Below, one piece after another: positions 1-61,036 of a DNA stretch of 64,000 bases. The position numbers were made by a program, and so were the translations under genes. This DNA comes from Escherichia coli. GTDB lineage: Bacteria; Pseudomonadota; Gammaproteobacteria; Enterobacterales; Enterobacteriaceae. Positions within the stretch are counted from its first letter, which is position 1, and each line of letters opens with the position of its first letter. Under the pieces are notes generated by a model. The model was given only the letters and a program-made list of their open reading frames with translations, had not been told where the DNA came from and did no database searches. Location: assembly GCF_003334765.1 (NCBI RefSeq), contig NZ_QOWT01000006.1; one strand, 5' to 3'.

Positions 1-493
1 CCAGCCTGCCCGTGGCGCTGTAGCCGTATTCCCGCGTCTGTCGCGGGCCGCTGATGCGCACCAGGTCGCCGTTGTCATTCCACCCGTAGTCACGGTCATA
101 CACCAGGCTGTTCAGGTGCTGGCTCTGTAACTGGCCTGCGGGGGTGTATGTGCTGGTCAGTTTATATGCGGCATTACTGCCTGCCATGCTGCCGAAGCTG
201 CGCACCGTCTCACGGTGCAGGCGGTCGCGCGTGAACTCCAGCAGCGGCGTCCCGCCCAGCTTCATGCCCGCAAGATAGCCGCTGCCGTAGGTCAGCCACT
301 CCACCGGCGGCAGACTGTCCGGCGTGACGCGGTTTGCCAGCCCCTGTTCGTTGTACGCATGTCCGGTCTCATGGTGCCACAGCAGTTCCCCCGTCTCCGG
401 GTTCTCCACCGTCTGGCGTTCGCCGGTCAGGCGGCCTTTATCGTCATAGCCGTAGTGGACCGACACGCGGTGGCCTCCCCCGGCAGCAGCGGC
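1..493 (-). pseudogene. rhsE: Rhs-family core (YD-repeat) fragment; frame is open from 493 to the window edge and continues beyond it; no intact 5' end
   Basis: Minus-strand translation gives YD-repeat motifs (..VHYGYDDKGRL.., ..REYGYSATGRL..). An in-frame stop at 494-496 separates it from the vgrG-like ORF, which is in another frame. The name rests on synteny with yncH/yncG/ansP. Confidence 0.65.
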
Positions 494-538
494 TCAAAGT
501 GAATGCTCCGCCCGCCGTTGTCGTTGAGTACCAGTGCA

Positions 539-1309
539 TCATCGCGTAGCTGTAAGCGGATAGTCCTGGTGCTGGCCTTCCTGTTCAAAACGTCCGGCCC
601 AGCCGGGGCGTTTAAAGGTGTAGTCTTTGGTCACCACGGAAGAAGGGCGGATTTGTGCGCTGTAGCGGAACTGGCTGATGCAGAGGGTGCTCACCTCGGT
701 ACGGGTGTTCGGGTTCCATGGGATTTCAAAAGATTCGGGCAGATGGCGGACTGTGTCGCACAGCACCAGGCTCTGGTCGGTACTTTTGTAAGCATGCTCC
801 TCATAAAAGAAGATGCCTTCCTCCGCCGCCATCCGGCACAGGAAATCGTAATCAGTCTCACCGTACTGGACACAAAACTCACGGGAAGGATGCGGCTCGC
901 TGAACAGCGGACTCCATTCGGTCACCCCGTTTTCCTGCAACATCGTGCCGAGGATGCTTTTGATGTCCTCGTTCTGGAAGATACGGAAGTTCTGGCGCAG
1001 ACCGGCACGCCACAGCGGCGGGTGCACCTTCATGCTGTACAGCATCTGGTTTTTGTCGTTCTCCCCGAGTTCAAACCAGGTCACCACGCCTTTCACCCGG
1101 CGCTGTACTTCATCGCCCTGCCATATCGTCAGGTAGGCCATTTTGTCCAGCACCTGCGCAAATTCAAGGGAGAGAAACTGCTGGCTGACCAGGGAGAGAT
1201 CGAGGGAAAAGAGCGAAGAGAGTGACTGGTTCAGATGAAAGGAAACCACCGCAAAAGCATCCGGCGGCAGGCCGTCCACTTCCAGTGTGAAACGTAATCC
1301 GGTTGACAT
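539..1309 (-). pseudogene. VgrG (type VI secretion spike) N-terminal fragment, truncated after about 256 codons
   Basis: ORF-track protein MSTGLRFTLEVDGLPPDAF... Start moved to the ATG at 1309, which has a CCTCC (GGAGG on minus) Shine-Dalgarno 5 nt upstream. The ORF stops at 539, far short of a full-length VgrG. Confidence 0.65.
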
Positions 1310-2128
1310 AGCAACCTCCGTGAAAATGAATAATAATCCGCACATATTGCATGTACAACATGTCGGGCGGATGAGATAAGCGAGTCGACATCTGGCGTTA
1401 CCGGGGAATATCAGAAAAATGTCATGGTTATGTGATGATTTAGTCTGGGATTTTACTTCAGAGAAACGGGTGTCTGTTTAGTCAACAAAATAATCACAAA
1501 CGCAACGGATGGGTTCTCGACGTTATTCACGACAGGCTCGTACATTACAGCGAGTAATAAAAAACCTGATATGCAAAGTCAAACCAATATTCATAATGTC
1601 TTTTTATTCACAACAATAAATAATTCAATAACAATCATTGAAATGAATGATGGTTTGTATAAGGAATATACGCTACCGCCCCACCCTGATAACATGATCT
1701 GCACATTGCCATCTTAACGTCGTTAAACACTAGCTTAATAGTGGATATTTCAAATTAGGAATTTATTAAATTCACCTGATGAATATAATAAGCAAATAGC
1801 ATAGAAAATAATGACAACTCCCCCGAGGGGACCATTTCCAAAGCACTGCACCACCACCTGGTGCCGGATGATCTTGCTTCAGTGGTAAGAGTACCTGATG
1901 CATTGTTCCCAAAATGGTGTTTTCCCCTGCCCCTCCAATAATGTGTAGCTCTCACTTGATAATCTATTGATTAGGTTATATTAAGAATCAACATTTAAAA
2001 TACATTCATTTTCTTGAATAAATCAACATGTTTATTAATCAATTGCTGTTTTAGCTCTGACTCATCAAGCTCTCCATATTTGTCCTACAGATAATTGCGA
2101 ATAAATACAGAGAACGCCATTTATCCTT

Positions 2129-36877: not shown

Positions 36878-37099
36878 TGACCAAAAACCTCTTTGCGTCA
36901 CATTTTTACAACAATTATTGCATAGAAAATTAATGCTATTGGAATGAAGAGAGTAACGAATGGCTAAACTGGCTAACCCGAATGACGAAAAATTCTGGAA
37001 AACAGCACGCAATTTCGTGAAGTGATTATTTTCGTCCCTAAGGAAACCTCATAGGATGCCTGCGGGTGCCTGAGACTTTCTGTTTTCAGGCTAACCGGG

Positions 37100-37151
37100 A
37101 ATCAGAAAGACGAAGGCCCCGACCGATATTTCTATCAACCGAGGCCAACGA

Positions 37152-37170
<19 letters not shown>
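37100..37170 (-). ncRNA. sokB: expected position of the Sok-type antisense RNA of the hokB locus (approximate)
   Basis: Inferred from hok/sok family architecture (antisense RNA overlapping the mok translation start). No promoter or terminator could be resolved confidently, so the coordinates are approximate. Confidence 0.25.
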
Positions 37171-37359
<189 letters not shown>

Positions 37360-37774: not shown

Positions 37775-37838
37775 CTTCCGATGTAGACCCGTATTCTTCG
37801 CCTGTACCACGGGTCGGTTTTAGTACAGGCGTTTTCTT
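37775..37838 (+). ncRNA. rydC: RydC-like Hfq-dependent small RNA (about 64 nt)
   Basis: TATAAT -10 at 37764-37769, then cuuccgauguagacccguauucuucgccuguaccacgggucgguuuuaguacaggcguuuucuu with a 9-bp terminator stem (cgcctgtac / gtacaggcg) and U-tract. Lies in the ydcA-cybB intergenic region, where I recall RydC mapping in K-12. Confidence 0.65.
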
Positions 37839-55267: not shown

Positions 55268-58200
55268 TTAGAACGTTTTCTTGAAGTTCAGCATCACGCC
55301 TTTATCGCTGATGCCATCCTCTTTCCAGTTGTACGCATCCAGATTCAGCGAACTTTCTTTGCTGCTGTACTTCACGCCGACGCTTGTCAGGCTATTGATG
55401 CCGCCGCCCTTCTGACCGTCATCGACGTTAAAGTGCTGACTGCCTGCGCCTGCCAGGCTTGCCGTACGCTGGCTCTTCGCGTAGCTCAGGTTCGGCCCGC
55501 CTTCCAGCGTAGCGCTAGCGCTCCAGCCGTCTTTACCTGCGTAGTCCAGTTTCAGCCCGACGATGCTGTCCACCGCCGTTTCGCTGCCACTGTTCATATT
55601 CAGGTTAAAGTCTCCGGCATTGCGCTCCTGATAGCCACCTTCCAGTGTGTGACGCAGTTTTACACCCGCATATGGCGTAACCTTCAGTCCTTCGCTCGGT
55701 TCGAAAGTCTTCGCCCCTTCGCTGCGGAACTCCAGGTACTGCTGTTTCACGTCGGTATCAGCCGTTTTGTTCGTGTTGCCAAATGCAATCGAGCGGCTGC
55801 TGTCAAGGTTGTGAACGTCGTAACGCAAGGCGTTATTCCAGTTCATGCCGTTATCGAACGACATCTGATGTTTCAGGCCAAAAAACTGGCTATAACCGCC
55901 TGTAACGCCATTATCACCCGCTTTCTGCGCACCATCACCATCGAGACGAGCGATACCGTACTCCAGACTCATCGTCTGGCTTTCGCTCAGGTCGATAGTT
56001 TTACGCAATGCCAGCATGTCGTATTCGGTATTATTACCTAACTCGGCACGCGGATCGCCTTTCGCGACAACGTTGAACGCCAGACCGTTACCCACTTTCG
56101 GCGCGGCATCTGCCAGCATACTAAAGCGGTTGCTTAACACGCGCGCTTCGCGGAATACCGTGGTCGCCTGGCTACCGCTGACCTGTTTCAGAGCACTGTT
56201 CAGTTCAGCAGTCGTGCCGACGTTCAGGCTGGTAAACAGTTCGTTGTTGGTGTAACCCGCATCCAGTGCTTTCGCGATGTCATTCACCGAGGCATCTGTT
56301 GCCACATCGGTGTAGGCATTTTTGCTCATGGTGACGTCAACGTTACCGCTGGCATCGGTGCTGCCTTTGGCAGTCCATACCACGGACGTTGAGGTGATGG
56401 CGTCAGCGTCGGTCAGGTTGCTACCTTCCACTACGTTATCAAAACTCACAGTGGTGTCTGCCGTACCAGCGGTAAAGCCCGTGTTAATCTCCACGCCGTT
56501 CATGCTGGCATTGTTAACCTTCAGCTTCCCGGCGCTGCCGTTAACGTTGGTACCGACGACATAGCCGTTGAGGTTGTTCATGCTGCCACCAGCCTCATCA
56601 CTTCCCGACGTTACACTAACCGTATTGGGCTTCGGCACATCCGGCAACGTATAGTCGCCATAATGCACTTCGCTGCTATTACCGTTGTTACCGTTCATAC
56701 CTTCAACATTGATGCTGTCGCCCTGCTTGATCAGTCCAGAACCCGTAACCCCATCGGCAATCACCACCGTGCCGTTGTTAACCACATGACCTACTGTACC
56801 CAGTACGCTAAATGCAAACGAGTCATTGGCGAAGATATTGATGGTGCCGTTGTTTTCGATTACCGCATCCGCCGTGGCGTTGGCATCGAGTTGCATACCG
56901 ATCATACCCGTGTCAGTAGTGCCTGCGGTACCGAGGTTGATGGTGCCATTGTTAACCAGCTGCGCGTTCTTATCACCTTCCATAGCCACAGCACCGGTGC
57001 CGCTGATGTTCATGATGCCGTCATTCTGGGCAATAAAGTTGCTGTGGGTGACTTTCACGGCACTGGCGCTGTCGTGATCGAAGTTGATGACCCCGTTATC
57101 CTGGTTCCAGAAGAAGGCATTCTGATCGCCGGCATTATTAGCGCTGACTACCAGTGACTTCGCAGAAACATCAATCGTTCCGTCATTGATAAAACGACCA
57201 TTTCCGCCCCACATATTAACGGCTCCGTTGTGGGAAGAATTACTGATGTTCATGTGACCGGTATTATAAAGCGTACCGGACTGGTTGATGTGCACAGCAT
57301 TCTTGTCGTTATCAAGAATAAACTCGCCGCGGTTATTGAAAGCTGAATTATTATTAACTTCCAGCATCCCGGTGTTGTTACCCTCACTACTACTTCCGAG
57401 GTTCCAGGTTCCTTCGTTATTTGCCACTGCAGTACCTGTCAGCGCAGCACCTCTCATAATCGCCCCGTCAGTTTGATTATTAAAGACCCCGCCAGCCGAC
57501 ATCATCCGCCCTGTTACACTGCCACTATTATTGAATACCCCCGCGTTCTGCACGATTTTATTGATGGTTCCGGTGTTGTTCACTAACGAACTATCAGCAC
57601 CAGCATTCATGGTAATTTGCGCAGTCATTTCTCCGGCATTATTGAGGATTCCACCGCTAACATCGACGTTATTCGTCATCACCCCGGCATTTTTAATGAC
57701 GGCACCCTTGTCAAGTTTTACTAAGTTATTGATGATGCCACCGCTGGTATTTTCCAGAAGACCGCTTGATACCGTAATTTGATCACCGGAAAGCGTTCCG
57801 CTATTAACAACATTCCCAGCCAGCTTATCAGTCACAGCAGCAGATTTATTTAGCGTTACAGTTTCTCCGCTTCGTGTAATCGTATCGCCACCGGTATAGA
57901 TCAGTGAGGTGAAATCATCTGTATTATTGTACTCATTCCCCGATTGGCACACGCCGAAAGTGCAGATTGTACCATAGTTAACAATTGTTCCTGTGCCATC
58001 GTTATAAAACGCCTGACCAGTACCAACATTGATATTGATAACACCCGTCTGGTCGTTGATAGCAGTACCATGCTCATAAACAGCCATCCCTACCAGAGTA
58101 TTTGCTGCCAGACTATCGTCATAATTACCATTTTTTTCGAGGTTAATCGTCCCCTGGTTAATAACTGTATTGCTGGCGCCATAGGCCGCCATACCTGCGC

Positions 58201-61036
58201 CGGCGTTATAAATAGTTATAACACCGCCCAATTGGTTAATTGCTGTTGCATTTTTCCCTGCACCACTATAACTATCAGTACCAACTCCCACACCTGTACC
58301 GAAGTCAATGGCGCTGTTGCTAGCTATATCTCGCATTGCGGTAGTGTCATTTGCATCTACCCACATAGAATCCAGTGTAATTTTACCCTGATTTTCTGCT
58401 GTTGAATCTGCTATAGCAAGCATGCCGACACTACCACGACCATACAAATCAATGATGCCGCTGTCAGTATTGATAATTGTGCTATTCGATTGAGCGACTA
58501 ACCCTGTTATGCTACTGACATCGTTATTAAAAATAAATGAATTCGATGTGCCCGTTGAATACTTGTTAAATACGCTATGTTGTTCCGTCACTTTACCTGT
58601 GATCGTACCTGCATTAGTGGCGCTCCCTCCGTTAGTAGCCAGTAAAACAATGGGAGACGGTGCCGGATCTTTACCATTTTGTAATAACGAGATCGTGCCA
58701 CTATTTATACCTGTTGTATTTTCACCAGTAACAAAAGCAAAACCTAAATTCTGAATTTCAACAGTACCTTTATTAACAATTTTCGCACCGGAATCAGCAT
58801 AAGTAAGTTCTGGGGTTCTTGTCCCATGATGTTCAAAACTGTCAATATCCTGCATTGTTAGCGTAGCGCCACTGCCAATTTCCAGCAAAGCTTTATCCTG
58901 TACCCGAATAACCCCGGCAAACCCCAGAGGGAATTCTCCGCTGATTGTCGTATCTCCATTCAGATATACCGACGACTCACCACTAACGACAATAACGCTG
59001 GTATAACTATATCCTGTGCGCAAGGAAGTAACCTGCGACCCATCTGCAAGCGCGTTTTTCTCTCCAATCAGTTCAAGTCCACCATTCATATTAACGGTAT
59101 TGCCATCGCCAATCACAACCAGACCTGACGTTTTCTCTGCGCTGCCATCAAATAAATTACTCTGACGAGAAGTAACCTCACTGTCTGATACAACAGTTAA
59201 CTTTCCATCCAGCGTCACGTTATTATCACTGCCGTAAACGTTGATACCCACGGATGGATCGAAGAAATATTCCGCCGCATTGTCTGCGGTTTTATCCTTA
59301 TCAACCAGAACGTTACCAGTGATATTCACTGTATTCGCATCGCCAGAAACGTTTATGCCCGTCGCTTTCTGCCCGACCACTTTTAGATCTTTTGCCGCCA
59401 GCGTCACGCTGTTATTGTTGCCATTAAGATCTACCCCGGTCGAGAAATCGCCAACCTGCATACTGCCTGCCAGCGAAACCTTCCCACTGTTGGTTGTGAT
59501 GCTGAACCCTGTCGCTTCATTGCTAACGTTAACATCACCCGTATTGGATACTGTTGCCCCCTCACCGTTGATGAGCACGCCAATCGATCCAGTATCGGAA
59601 ACAACAATATCTCCTTTGTTGTTAACCGTGCCGTTGTCACCAATGTTCTCAACACCATGCGCACCGCCTGTAACAGTCAGGCTACCATCCAGATTTACAA
59701 TGCCGATATTGCCCGCGATTTTGGTACCCGTGGAATCTTTTCCATCAACAGTGGTTTTTCCACTGTTATTCGCGGTGGCGTCGTTACCGTTGATCTGAGT
59801 GCCGGTGCCGCCATTGGTGATAGTGCTCTCGCCTTCGTTATTGACGATGGCCTGGTCGCCGTCAATCTGGATACCGATGGACTCCGGATCGGTGACGGTC
59901 ATGGTGCCCTTGTTATCCACCGTTGCGCTGTCGCCGGTGATATCAATACCGTGACCGCCGCCGCTGACATCCAGATCGCCGTCCTGAATAACTTTTCCGT
60001 TATTACCGTTGATTTCCGTACCGGTGGAATCCTTGCCGTCAACGGTGGTTTTGCCGTTGTTGTTTGCCGTGGCGTCATCACCATTAATCTGGGTGCCGGT
60101 GCCACCGTTGGTGATGGTGCTCTCGCCTTCGTTATTGACGATGGCCTTGTCACCGTCGATCTGGATACCCATGGACTCCGGATCGGTGACGGTCATGGTG
60201 CCCTTGTTATCCACCGTCGCGCTGTCACCGGTGATATCAATACCGTGACCGCCGCCGCTGACATCCAGATCGCCGTCCTGAATCACTTTCCCGTTATTAC
60301 CGTTGATTTCCGTACCGGTGGAATCTTTACCGTCAACGGTGGTTTTGCCATTGTTGTTTACTGTGGCATTATCACCCGTAATAACAAGCTCACCGTTGTG
60401 ATTATATTGCCACTTCGTTGCGCCATCTGCGCTCACCCCTTCAAGGGCAACAGTGTTATTCGCTTCATCAATCTGCCAAAGATTAATCGTTGCCTTACGA
60501 CCATTGCTATCTTGCAGAGATATAGTCCCGTCAGCATTCTCGGTATAAGTAAAAACTGAATCGCGAATAGTTAACGTTTTTTCTGTTTTATCGAGAATAA
60601 CGTCATTATTAAACGAAACCGGTTTGGGAGGTGTAGGCGTATCATCCGGATCGTCCGGTATTATCTCATCTCCGCCAGGAGTTGGGGGAACTGGAGTGTC
60701 GTCTGATTCATCATCAGGGGGTGTCGGTGGGAGTGGAGAATTGTTGCGATGATGATGATCATCATCGTCGTTTAGTTCCACTACGGCTAAGGCCGTGATT
60801 AACGCAGCAGCGCCTGTGGAAAGCCATGGCATCAGGTTTTGTTCGACTAAAGGAGAGCATTCAGAGGGTAAGCGTTTAAGCTCTTCCGGACTGAGTTTTC
60901 CTGGGTCTGCCGGACAAGTCACATTGGTATTTTTCTTTTCACCTGTGGTGGTTTCTACCTCTGTGATATCTGCCGCCCAACCCTGACCACTCAGAGCTAA
61001 TGCAATACAGGCCGACAATAGAGTTTTCCTTTGCAT
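55268..61036 (-). CDS. ydbA: type V autotransporter (large repeat-rich passenger plus C-terminal beta-barrel), uninterrupted
   Basis: 1922-aa ORF with a signal peptide (MQRKTLLSACIALALSGQGWA), a Pro/Asp-rich linker, a Gly/Asn/Thr-rich beta-helical passenger with tandem repeats, and a C-terminal barrel ending ..NFKKTF. Confidence 0.85.
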   Translation of the reverse strand: MQRKTLLSACIALALSGQGWAADITEVETTTGEKKNTNVTCPADPGKLSPEELKRLPSECSPLVEQNLMPWLSTGAAALITALAVVELNDDDDHHHRNNSPLPPTPPDDESDDTPVPPTPGGDEIIPDDPDDTPTPPKPVSFNNDVILDKTEKTLTIRDSVFTYTENADGTISLQDSNGRKATINLWQIDEANNTVALEGVSADGATKWQYNHNGELVITGDNATVNNNGKTTVDGKDSTGTEINGNNGKVIQDGDLDVSGGGHGIDITGDSATVDNKGTMTVTDPESMGIQIDGDKAIVNNEGESTITNGGTGTQINGDDATANNNGKTTVDGKDSTGTEINGNNGKVIQDGDLDVSGGGHGIDITGDSATVDNKGTMTVTDPESIGIQIDGDQAIVNNEGESTITNGGTGTQINGNDATANNSGKTTVDGKDSTGTKIAGNIGIVNLDGSLTVTGGAHGVENIGDNGTVNNKGDIVVSDTGSIGVLINGEGATVSNTGDVNVSNEATGFSITTNSGKVSLAGSMQVGDFSTGVDLNGNNNSVTLAAKDLKVVGQKATGINVSGDANTVNITGNVLVDKDKTADNAAEYFFDPSVGINVYGSDNNVTLDGKLTVVSDSEVTSRQSNLFDGSAEKTSGLVVIGDGNTVNMNGGLELIGEKNALADGSQVTSLRTGYSYTSVIVVSGESSVYLNGDTTISGEFPLGFAGVIRVQDKALLEIGSGATLTMQDIDSFEHHGTRTPELTYADSGAKIVNKGTVEIQNLGFAFVTGENTTGINSGTISLLQNGKDPAPSPIVLLATNGGSATNAGTITGKVTEQHSVFNKYSTGTSNSFIFNNDVSSITGLVAQSNSTIINTDSGIIDLYGRGSVGMLAIADSTAENQGKITLDSMWVDANDTTAMRDIASNSAIDFGTGVGVGTDSYSGAGKNATAINQLGGVITIYNAGAGMAAYGASNTVINQGTINLEKNGNYDDSLAANTLVGMAVYEHGTAINDQTGVININVGTGQAFYNDGTGTIVNYGTICTFGVCQSGNEYNNTDDFTSLIYTGGDTITRSGETVTLNKSAAVTDKLAGNVVNSGTLSGDQITVSSGLLENTSGGIINNLVKLDKGAVIKNAGVMTNNVDVSGGILNNAGEMTAQITMNAGADSSLVNNTGTINKIVQNAGVFNNSGSVTGRMMSAGGVFNNQTDGAIMRGAALTGTAVANNEGTWNLGSSSEGNNTGMLEVNNNSAFNNRGEFILDNDKNAVHINQSGTLYNTGHMNISNSSHNGAVNMWGGNGRFINDGTIDVSAKSLVVSANNAGDQNAFFWNQDNGVINFDHDSASAVKVTHSNFIAQNDGIMNISGTGAVAMEGDKNAQLVNNGTINLGTAGTTDTGMIGMQLDANATADAVIENNGTINIFANDSFAFSVLGTVGHVVNNGTVVIADGVTGSGLIKQGDSINVEGMNGNNGNSSEVHYGDYTLPDVPKPNTVSVTSGSDEAGGSMNNLNGYVVGTNVNGSAGKLKVNNASMNGVEINTGFTAGTADTTVSFDNVVEGSNLTDADAITSTSVVWTAKGSTDASGNVDVTMSKNAYTDVATDASVNDIAKALDAGYTNNELFTSLNVGTTAELNSALKQVSGSQATTVFREARVLSNRFSMLADAAPKVGNGLAFNVVAKGDPRAELGNNTEYDMLALRKTIDLSESQTMSLEYGIARLDGDGAQKAGDNGVTGGYSQFFGLKHQMSFDNGMNWNNALRYDVHNLDSSRSIAFGNTNKTADTDVKQQYLEFRSEGAKTFEPSEGLKVTPYAGVKLRHTLEGGYQERNAGDFNLNMNSGSETAVDSIVGLKLDYAGKDGWSASATLEGGPNLSYAKSQRTASLAGAGSQHFNVDDGQKGGGINSLTSVGVKYSSKESSLNLDAYNWKEDGISDKGVMLNFKKTF
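59816..60403. repeat. two tandem 294-bp (98-codon) near-identical repeats inside ydbA, flanked by more diverged copies
   Basis: Copy 59816-60109 versus 60110-60403 is about 95% identical by eye; encodes repeated NNGKTTVDGKDSTGTEINGNNGKVIQDGDLDVSGGGHGIDITGDSATVDNKGTMTVTDPES... units. Confidence 0.8.

Follow-up and report, generated by a model that had tools for sequence, protein, structure and literature searches.

The first 1,345 positions of a 64,000-nucleotide stretch of Escherichia coli DNA (contig NZ_QOWT01000006.1 of assembly GCF_003334765.1; the whole stretch is hereafter called the window) carry a piece of a vgrG gene, which encodes the VgrG/TssI spike protein of type VI secretion, and a piece of an rhs gene, and they raise the question of what element these pieces come from, how they came to be joined, and what they can still do. 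They are the promoter-proximal part of the E. coli RhsE locus (yncH-vgrG-rhsE-ydcD-ISAs1). The explanation favoured here, with high confidence, is that a progenitor resembling the intact AR202.2 allele was reduced by two microhomology-mediated deletions to a non-functional RhsE element that is not a deliverable effector, and that the toxin tip and the immunity gene ydcD were kept.

The RhsE remnant and its two deletion junctions

Window bases 1-1500 are 100% identical to E. coli strain H3 (NZ_CP028732.1), in which RefSeq, using the NCBI Prokaryotic Genome Annotation Pipeline (PGAP), annotates a partial tssI gene without its C-terminus followed by a partial RHS gene without its N-terminus. The genes upstream of these in H3 are yncH, yncG, ansP and yncE, and those downstream are ydcD, yncO, two ISAs1-family copies and pptA. 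A preliminary description of the window, made from its sequence alone, had taken the remnant to mark the edge of an accessory island; a better description is that it belongs to the RhsE element, already known, which in most E. coli occupies a fixed site between yncH and pptA. The b1455-b1461 site is listed among the fixed rhs positions of E. coli, with rhsE a pseudogene in K-12 (PMC3032704), and rhs loci vary across strains, being present, pseudogenes or relics (PMC2935791). Intact alleles at this site (e.g. DA33133 and AR202.2) consist of a vgrG gene of 2,109 nt (702 aa), rhs (4,224 nt and 1,407 aa in DA33133), and then ydcD. The BLAST comparison with intact vgrG and rhs genes that had been proposed as a check gave colinear matches of 99.9-100% at the same chromosomal site, with exact breakpoints.

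The vgrG part lies on the minus strand, as does every other part of the remnant. A Shine-Dalgarno sequence, GGAGG (1319-1315), read directly from the sequence, stands 5 nt upstream of the ATG at 1309, from which the first 749 nt of vgrG extend (561..1309), 99.9% identical to the intact gene of AR202.2 (locus L009) and of the intact reference locus L002, up to L002 position 12940. The open reading frame (ORF) that begins at this ATG (539..1309) comprises 256 codons, of which 249 are VgrG codons and the last 7 are read out of frame from rhs sequence (..DYPLTATR) before the TGA stop at 541-539. In profile searches its product matches TIGR03361 (VgrG/TssI) over profile positions 1-240 of 513 (E 4e-66) and Pfam Phage_GPD (PF05954) over positions 3-218 of 305 (E 7e-55). 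The start signals, the length of about 256 residues and the stop that had been described beforehand are borne out by the sequence. The gp27-like N-terminal (Phage_GPD) domain of the VgrG/TssI spike is present, and the gp5-like oligonucleotide/oligosaccharide-binding fold and beta-helical needle are absent, the TIGR03361 match ending at position 240; full-length VgrG proteins are typically about 600-700 aa or more. The window VgrG is therefore the gp27-like N-terminal part of a spike protein only. The yncH-vgrG intergenic region (1310..2128, minus strand) is the presumed location of the vgrG promoter.

The translation of window positions 493 to 1 matches positions 742-899 of the 1,261 positions of NCBIfam RHS_core (E 5e-95), and includes both motifs, HYGYDDKGRL and YGYSATGRL, on which the preliminary description had based its claim of Rhs YD repeats. 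This rhs core fragment (1..476) runs off the window, and its continuation was read in strain H3. The fragment had been assigned to a different frame from vgrG. This is not so: when positions 1309 to 1 are translated in one frame, the fragment appears in the vgrG frame, separated from vgrG by two in-frame stops, at 541-539 and at 496-494 (TGA, 494..496). Three plus-strand ORFs predicted across the locus (215-502, 334-549 and 503-1225) had been dismissed as antisense artefacts; they have no significant family match and are unannotated in the identical RefSeq record, in keeping with that judgement. An Rfam scan of window 1-1345 found no RNA family.

The stretch between the vgrG and Rhs parts is not spacer. 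It is a 90-bp island from the 5' part of rhs (nt 303-392; 473..562), identical to AR202.2 at 90 of 90 nt, and it shares its frame with neither vgrG nor the rhs sequence downstream; an ORF covering it (427-588) matches RHS_core positions 100-140. A complete RHS core would span some 1,260 profile positions, with a closed shell and an N-terminal region, of which only positions 100-140, out of frame, and 742 onward are left in this allele. Exact mapping against AR202.2, the intact allele of matching haplotype (BLAST identity 100% over the island and 99.9% to either side of it), located two junctions. Junction A (561..562) joins vgrG nt 749 to rhs nt 303 at a 2-nt microhomology, TA, with 1,730 bp missing, namely the 3' two-thirds of vgrG from nt 750, the intergenic spacer and rhs nt 1-304. 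Junction B (473..476) joins rhs nt 392 to about nt 2218 at a 4-nt microhomology, AGGC, with 1,825 bp missing from within rhs, so that 3,555 bp in total are absent relative to the intact locus.

Since the 90-bp island is retained between them, there were two deletions, not one. The preliminary description was right that the locus is a remnant, the intact alleles encoding a 702-aa VgrG and a 1,407-aa Rhs protein; the single deletion that it supposed is ruled out by the BLAST comparisons with intact alleles, which give two deletions flanking the island. The reading frames follow from the same events: deletion A shifts the frame, so that the vgrG ORF reads 7 foreign codons and stops within the island, and since the two genes of the intact locus are in one frame and the sum of 1,730 and 1,825 is a multiple of 3, the Rhs fragment is back in the vgrG frame. 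The progenitor would have lost the DNA from vgrG codon 250 to rhs nt 304, with joining at TA, and a second segment within rhs, with joining at AGGC, both very probably through microhomology-mediated illegitimate recombination.

A probe of 181 nt that covers both junctions detected the double-junction allele in 22 of a set of 5,426 complete genomes, and a 60-nt probe for junction B detected exactly the same 22, so that junction B was found only together with junction A. The cores of rhs genes are multicopy (the median number of matching places in a genome is 8) and easily misassembled, which might lead one to suspect an assembly or sequencing artefact; however, the same double junction occurs at 100% identity in these 22 complete genomes, which were sequenced independently and come from different hosts and countries, and the junctions sit in unique flanking context, so that an artefact is extremely improbable. 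Only one genome, that of strain PI12, has junction A without junction B, together with a mosaic rhs and a different toxin tip, an arrangement that would fit deletion A having occurred first. At least 2,594 genomes cover at least 80% of the intact reference locus, a count that takes in a few alleles with small internal deletions, internal stops or insertion sequence (IS) insertions.

Loss of delivery and retention of the toxin tip and immunity gene

A VgrG spike requires the gp5 needle, and a closed Rhs cage requires the N-terminal plug. The window allele has lost the gp5 needle and the C-terminal region of VgrG and so can form no spike; having also lost the N-terminal plug and about 60% of the YD shell of Rhs, it can form no closed cage. 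With neither spike nor cage, the locus is not a deliverable type VI effector, a conclusion that rests on domain coverage and on this established architecture. No type VI secretion system core genes were found in the 64-kb window, and K-12 and B, which have other decayed alleles, are reported to be without such a system (PMC3032704).

The other end of the element has fared differently. Leftward extension, which had been suggested as a check for a C-terminal toxin and its immunity gene, found both in H3, where the rhs fragment continues for about 2 kb past the end of the window through a Rhs-associated core (TIGR03696, E 1e-24; DPIGL...DPMGL) with its DPxGL motif to a tip of 149 aa that matches DUF6973 (E 2.7e-12), followed by ydcD, whose start lies ahead of the rhs stop, an overlap of 17 nt. 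Beyond the window, the element as seen in H3 thus has the DPxGL core, variable tip and immunity gene of an Rhs polymorphic toxin. A PDB sequence search with the tip found nothing significant; the best match, itself not significant, was of tip residues 24-107 (locus L001) to 9uu0_A, a fusion of maltose-binding protein and a Bacteroides fragilis type VI secretion effector (E 0.16), which offers no more than a starting point for comparing folds. The YdcD protein (WP_000939263.1) is identical in intact, window-type and K-12-type alleles, and the module of DUF6973 tip and ydcD (query L001 11580-12501) is present in 2,443 of the 5,426 genomes, at 99% or greater nucleotide identity in nearly all. In a sample of 38 of these matches, about 40% follow an rhs annotated as a fragment. 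The module also occurs at other chromosomal positions, e.g. in O157:H7.

The window Rhs fragment resembles the orphan rhs-CT/rhsI modules described by Poole et al. 2011 (PMC3150448) and Jackson et al. 2009 (PMC2935791) in its 5'-truncated core and in the DPxGL region, tip and immunity gene that go with it, and such modules, common at rhs loci, have been proposed to serve as immunity repertoires and in recombination. Orphan modules lie 3' of a full-length rhs gene as a result of displacement of its tip, whereas no full-length rhs lies upstream of the window fragment, which is colinear with the main gene and is the decayed main gene itself. Moreover, both junctions map base for base to an intact allele that occupies this site and has this tip and this ydcD, and only internal deletion accounts for the 90-bp island from the 5' part of rhs. 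Displacement of an orphan module is therefore a very unlikely origin for the fragment.

A second alternative concerns what the remnant does now. Junction B has created, in the Rhs frame, a GGAGG sequence (478-474) followed after 7 nt by a GTG codon (466-464), a putative re-initiation site (464..478) that could, speculatively, permit re-initiation and coupling to ydcD. The remnant would then still be expressed, from the vgrG promoter, as a bicistronic or tricistronic mRNA, with re-initiation at the GTG giving a truncated Rhs protein of about 666 aa and coupled YdcD, and would act as an intracellular toxin-antitoxin-like or immunity module. This GTG is the first in-frame start codon; the junction raises its Shine-Dalgarno match from 4/6, as at the same GTG in other alleles, to 5/6 with ideal spacing, and only 1 of the 74 in-frame start-type codons of intact rhs has a match of at least 5/6. 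The overlap of the ydcD start with the rhs stop and the retention of the vgrG 5' end and upstream region by nearly all mapped alleles would also suit continued expression, and Salmonella rhs/orphan modules are reported to act as toxin-antitoxin modules (PMC7043789). Against this, the site was noticed post hoc, as a single case with a background of about 1.4% per codon; the improved match is absent from K-12 and several other alleles; retention of the vgrG 5' end is partly an effect of ascertainment, the probes having required the vgrG 5' flank; and PGAP labels both parts pseudogenes. Continued expression of this kind is accordingly considered unlikely.

If the doubly deleted, undeliverable RhsE element retains any role, the most likely would be immunity against RhsE-armed neighbours, together with service as a patch of homology for rhs recombination, roles that have also been proposed for orphan rhs-CT/rhsI modules (PMC3150448); the retention of the DPxGL motif, the tip and ydcD points this way. 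That such remnants can act as recombination substrates for other rhs elements had been proposed beforehand, and the idea fits the mosaic blocks of single-nucleotide polymorphisms (SNPs) in the rhs core among alleles, which point to gene conversion or recombination among rhs copies. The block mosaic was seen among loci L002, L004, L005, L008 and L009 (L002 14669-17100), and L008 changes from a haplotype like that of AR202.2 to one like DA33133/rhsD within 100 nt of position 14669, a recurrent deletion end described below.

Several points weigh against parts of this interpretation. The high identity of the C-terminal tip and ydcD could reflect recent spread, not selection; a promoter scan upstream of vgrG gave nothing above shuffled expectation; and PI12 could have gained junction A by recombination, so that the order of the deletions is unproven. 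The RhsE case nevertheless illustrates how the toxin-tip and immunity end of an Rhs effector outlasts the delivery end, and this survival fits the idea that cells retain immunity against the weapons of their neighbours.

Deletion junctions at vgrG-rhsE across E. coli

Deletion alleles of the locus were recovered with chimeric probes in which the unique yncH-vgrG 5' flank was joined to rhs sequence, and 21 of them were fetched along with two references of intact length, one with an internal stop; junctions were mapped against the progenitor, and coordinates are given in the intact reference L002. This non-exhaustive survey yielded 22 distinct deletion junctions, all within one 4.5-kb interval, and several of their ends recur with different partners. 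On the right (a slash marks the point of joining), the end at 14669 (TGA/TATCCGC; R1) is paired with 12367, 12940, 12992 and 13536, the end at 16555/6 (GGTT/AACCACC; R2) with 12124 (in K-12), 12940 and 13111, and the end at 16019/20 (GGGCTA/CCAGAC) with 12433 and 12888. On the left, the end at 12940-42 (GGACTA/CCAGCG) is paired with R1, R2 and 15815, that at 12849 (GCACAAA/TCCGCC) with 14505, 16150 and 16241, and that at 12367 (GGCCTA/CCTGAC) with R1 and 14869. There are 7 pairs of left ends and 10 pairs of right ends that lie within 2 nt of each other, where about 0.4 would be expected on either side, and none of 20,000 simulations reached the observed values. The sites at 12940-42, 12849 and 16019/20 are each used on two haplotypes, with SNPs 8-25 nt from the joint, indicating that their reuse represents independent events. 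Shared descent as the explanation for recurrent ends is thereby rejected in part, for these three sites; sequential reuse of a site within one haplotype may also have occurred.

The joints are distinguished by their composition in DNA that is GC-rich (56% GC in vgrG, 64% in the rhs core). Among the 18 microhomologies of at least 2 nt, 13 consist of A and T only (TA seven times, TTA and TAT once each, AAA and AA twice each), compared with 8% under the null (binomial P 3.5e-11). Use of sites rises with the length of the A/T-only run, from 0.7% of runs of 1 nt to 4.3%, 5.4% and 10.5% of runs of 2, 3 and at least 4 nt, respectively, and 80% of ends touch an A/T run of at least 2 nt, compared with 34% of positions. 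Base composition is not sufficient: the recurrence of right ends is still significant among TA sites alone (P 0.00075), so that something more must make R1 and R2 hot. The longest perfect palindrome in the 7.7-kb locus, GGGTGGTT/AACCACCC, has R2 at its exact centre, and three of the five GGTTAA sites in the interval act as right ends.

The E. coli B/BL21 lineage (L018, BLR(DE3), about 30 genomes; locus 2658-2663) has an allele of its own, in which vgrG ends at nt 339 and rhs takes over at about nt 579. The 7 nt inserted at this joint, TTCCGTA, are a copy of sequence 18 nt upstream, a signature of template switching. Both parts of this allele are partial according to PGAP, and the E. coli W genome paper gives B rhsE no pseudogene flag. 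Three alleles (EC416, 2017.02.03CC and 26561) are in-frame vgrG-rhs fusions annotated as single ORFs, and a fourth in-frame allele has an internal deletion of vgrG; in-frame alleles make up about one-third, as chance predicts. The fusion ORFs run from the vgrG ATG into the Rhs tip at 5820-8729 in L010 (969 aa), at 3321-6845 in L013 (1,174 aa), and from 2320 in L022 (a coding sequence of 5,265 nt, about 1,754 aa).

The data favour microhomology-mediated template switching, in which nascent ends would fray and then anneal again at A/T islands, which are rare in this GC-rich DNA, with the palindromic GGTTAACC adding a pause or break at its centre. A general model of deletion at hairpin loops was rejected, as neither unpaired probability nor flanking GC content separates used from unused TA sites (P 0.5-0.9); only two ends fit, R1 because it falls in a loop and R2 because the strongest hairpin has its tip there. 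Resection by RecBCD limited by Chi was rejected because the 7.7-kb locus contains no canonical Chi site in either orientation. IS-mediated adjacent deletion was rejected because no IS sequence is present at any of the 22 junctions, all of which join vgrG or its upstream region directly to vgrG or rhs, the two sides either overlapping by 0-4 nt or having 1-7 nt inserted between them. Restriction cutting at GATATC and GTTAAC, the hexamers that hold R1 and R2, was rejected on three grounds: a blunt EcoRV-type cut would have taken away a T that is still present at the L005 junction, most of the other ends lie outside palindromic hexamers, and the lack of resection on one side would go unexplained. 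The resemblance of some motifs to REP/RAYT (repetitive extragenic palindrome and its associated transposase) elements was at chance level and was dropped.

It is tentatively proposed, as a possibility on the doubtful side, that a site-selective, A/T-centred deletion process operates at the locus, which would make mostly 2-nt TA joints, prefer as ends the centres of GGTTAACC-type palindromes, CTA/CC and A/TCCGC, and reuse its sites on different haplotypes. Such a process might arise from preferential fraying and re-annealing of nascent 3' ends at A/T islands, or from TA-staggered cutting by a nuclease or transposase-like activity so far unrecognised. In addition, selection may retain those alleles that permit translation into the tip/immunity module, such as the in-frame fusions and the allele with the Shine-Dalgarno sequence and GTG at junction B. 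Were TTAA or the palindrome causal, deletions would be expected no longer to end at R2 once GGTTAACC had been changed to GGTCGACC. If the proposal is true, the locus is a natural allelic series for dissecting a distinct pathway of illegitimate recombination in E. coli.

Significance and comparison with known systems

The remnant itself is ordinary and already known in kind, its identical sequence being annotated as partial genes in RefSeq. The allelic series is statistically solid and is the sole part that a specialist might find surprising: its 22 junctions, including those of the laboratory strains K-12 and BL21, are unusually rich natural data on deletion of E. coli DNA without long homology. 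Elsewhere in the window, an uninterrupted ORF of 1,922 aa (55268-61036, minus strand) matches, with a score below the curated cut-off, a BigA autotransporter adhesin model in its C-terminal 800 residues; in K-12 the counterpart, ydbA, is broken up by IS elements. A sok antitoxin RNA (RF01794, 109.7 bits; 37064-37215) and the small RNA RydC (RF00505, 92.5 bits; 37775-37838), both on the plus strand, are ordinary E. coli features.

Compared with intact RhsE-type vgrG-rhs-rhsI loci such as that of DA33133, the window allele has the same gene order, promoter region and pair of toxin tip and immunity gene, but is without the gp5 needle, the C-terminal region of VgrG, the N-terminal region of Rhs and most of the YD shell. 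RhsE is reportedly described as defective in K-12 in papers from the Hill laboratory, and vgr genes are said to have been first named at RhsE and RhsG. K-12-type genomes have no vgrG at the RhsE site and an rhs fragment of 2,037 nt. The K-12 rhsE pseudogene (b1456) shares with the window allele its site, its rhs 3' haplotype (100% over the 476 nt in common), its YdcD protein and the downstream ISAs1 (H-repeat) copies. It differs in having arisen by one larger deletion, which starts inside the yncH-vgrG intergenic region, 68 bp upstream of the vgrG ATG (approximately window position 1377), and ends at the centre of the rhs palindrome (joint TTA), so that vgrG is wholly gone, while 27 nt of rhs that the window allele is without are retained. 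Derivation of either allele from the other is excluded, since K-12 keeps these 27 nt and the window allele keeps vgrG; the two are siblings.

A literature search for comparable deletion hot spots in E. coli found nothing directly relevant, and to our knowledge recurrent A/T-only joints have not been described for natural E. coli alleles, the older literature having been outside the search. Short-homology illegitimate deletions and template switching in E. coli were reportedly described by Albertini et al. 1982, Glickman & Ripley 1984 and Chayot et al. 2010. The RhsE joints are like these in having 0-4 nt of homology, one templated insertion (in BL21) and one end at a palindrome, and differ from them in that the joints are overwhelmingly A/T-only in GC-rich DNA and that a few ends recur with varied partners.

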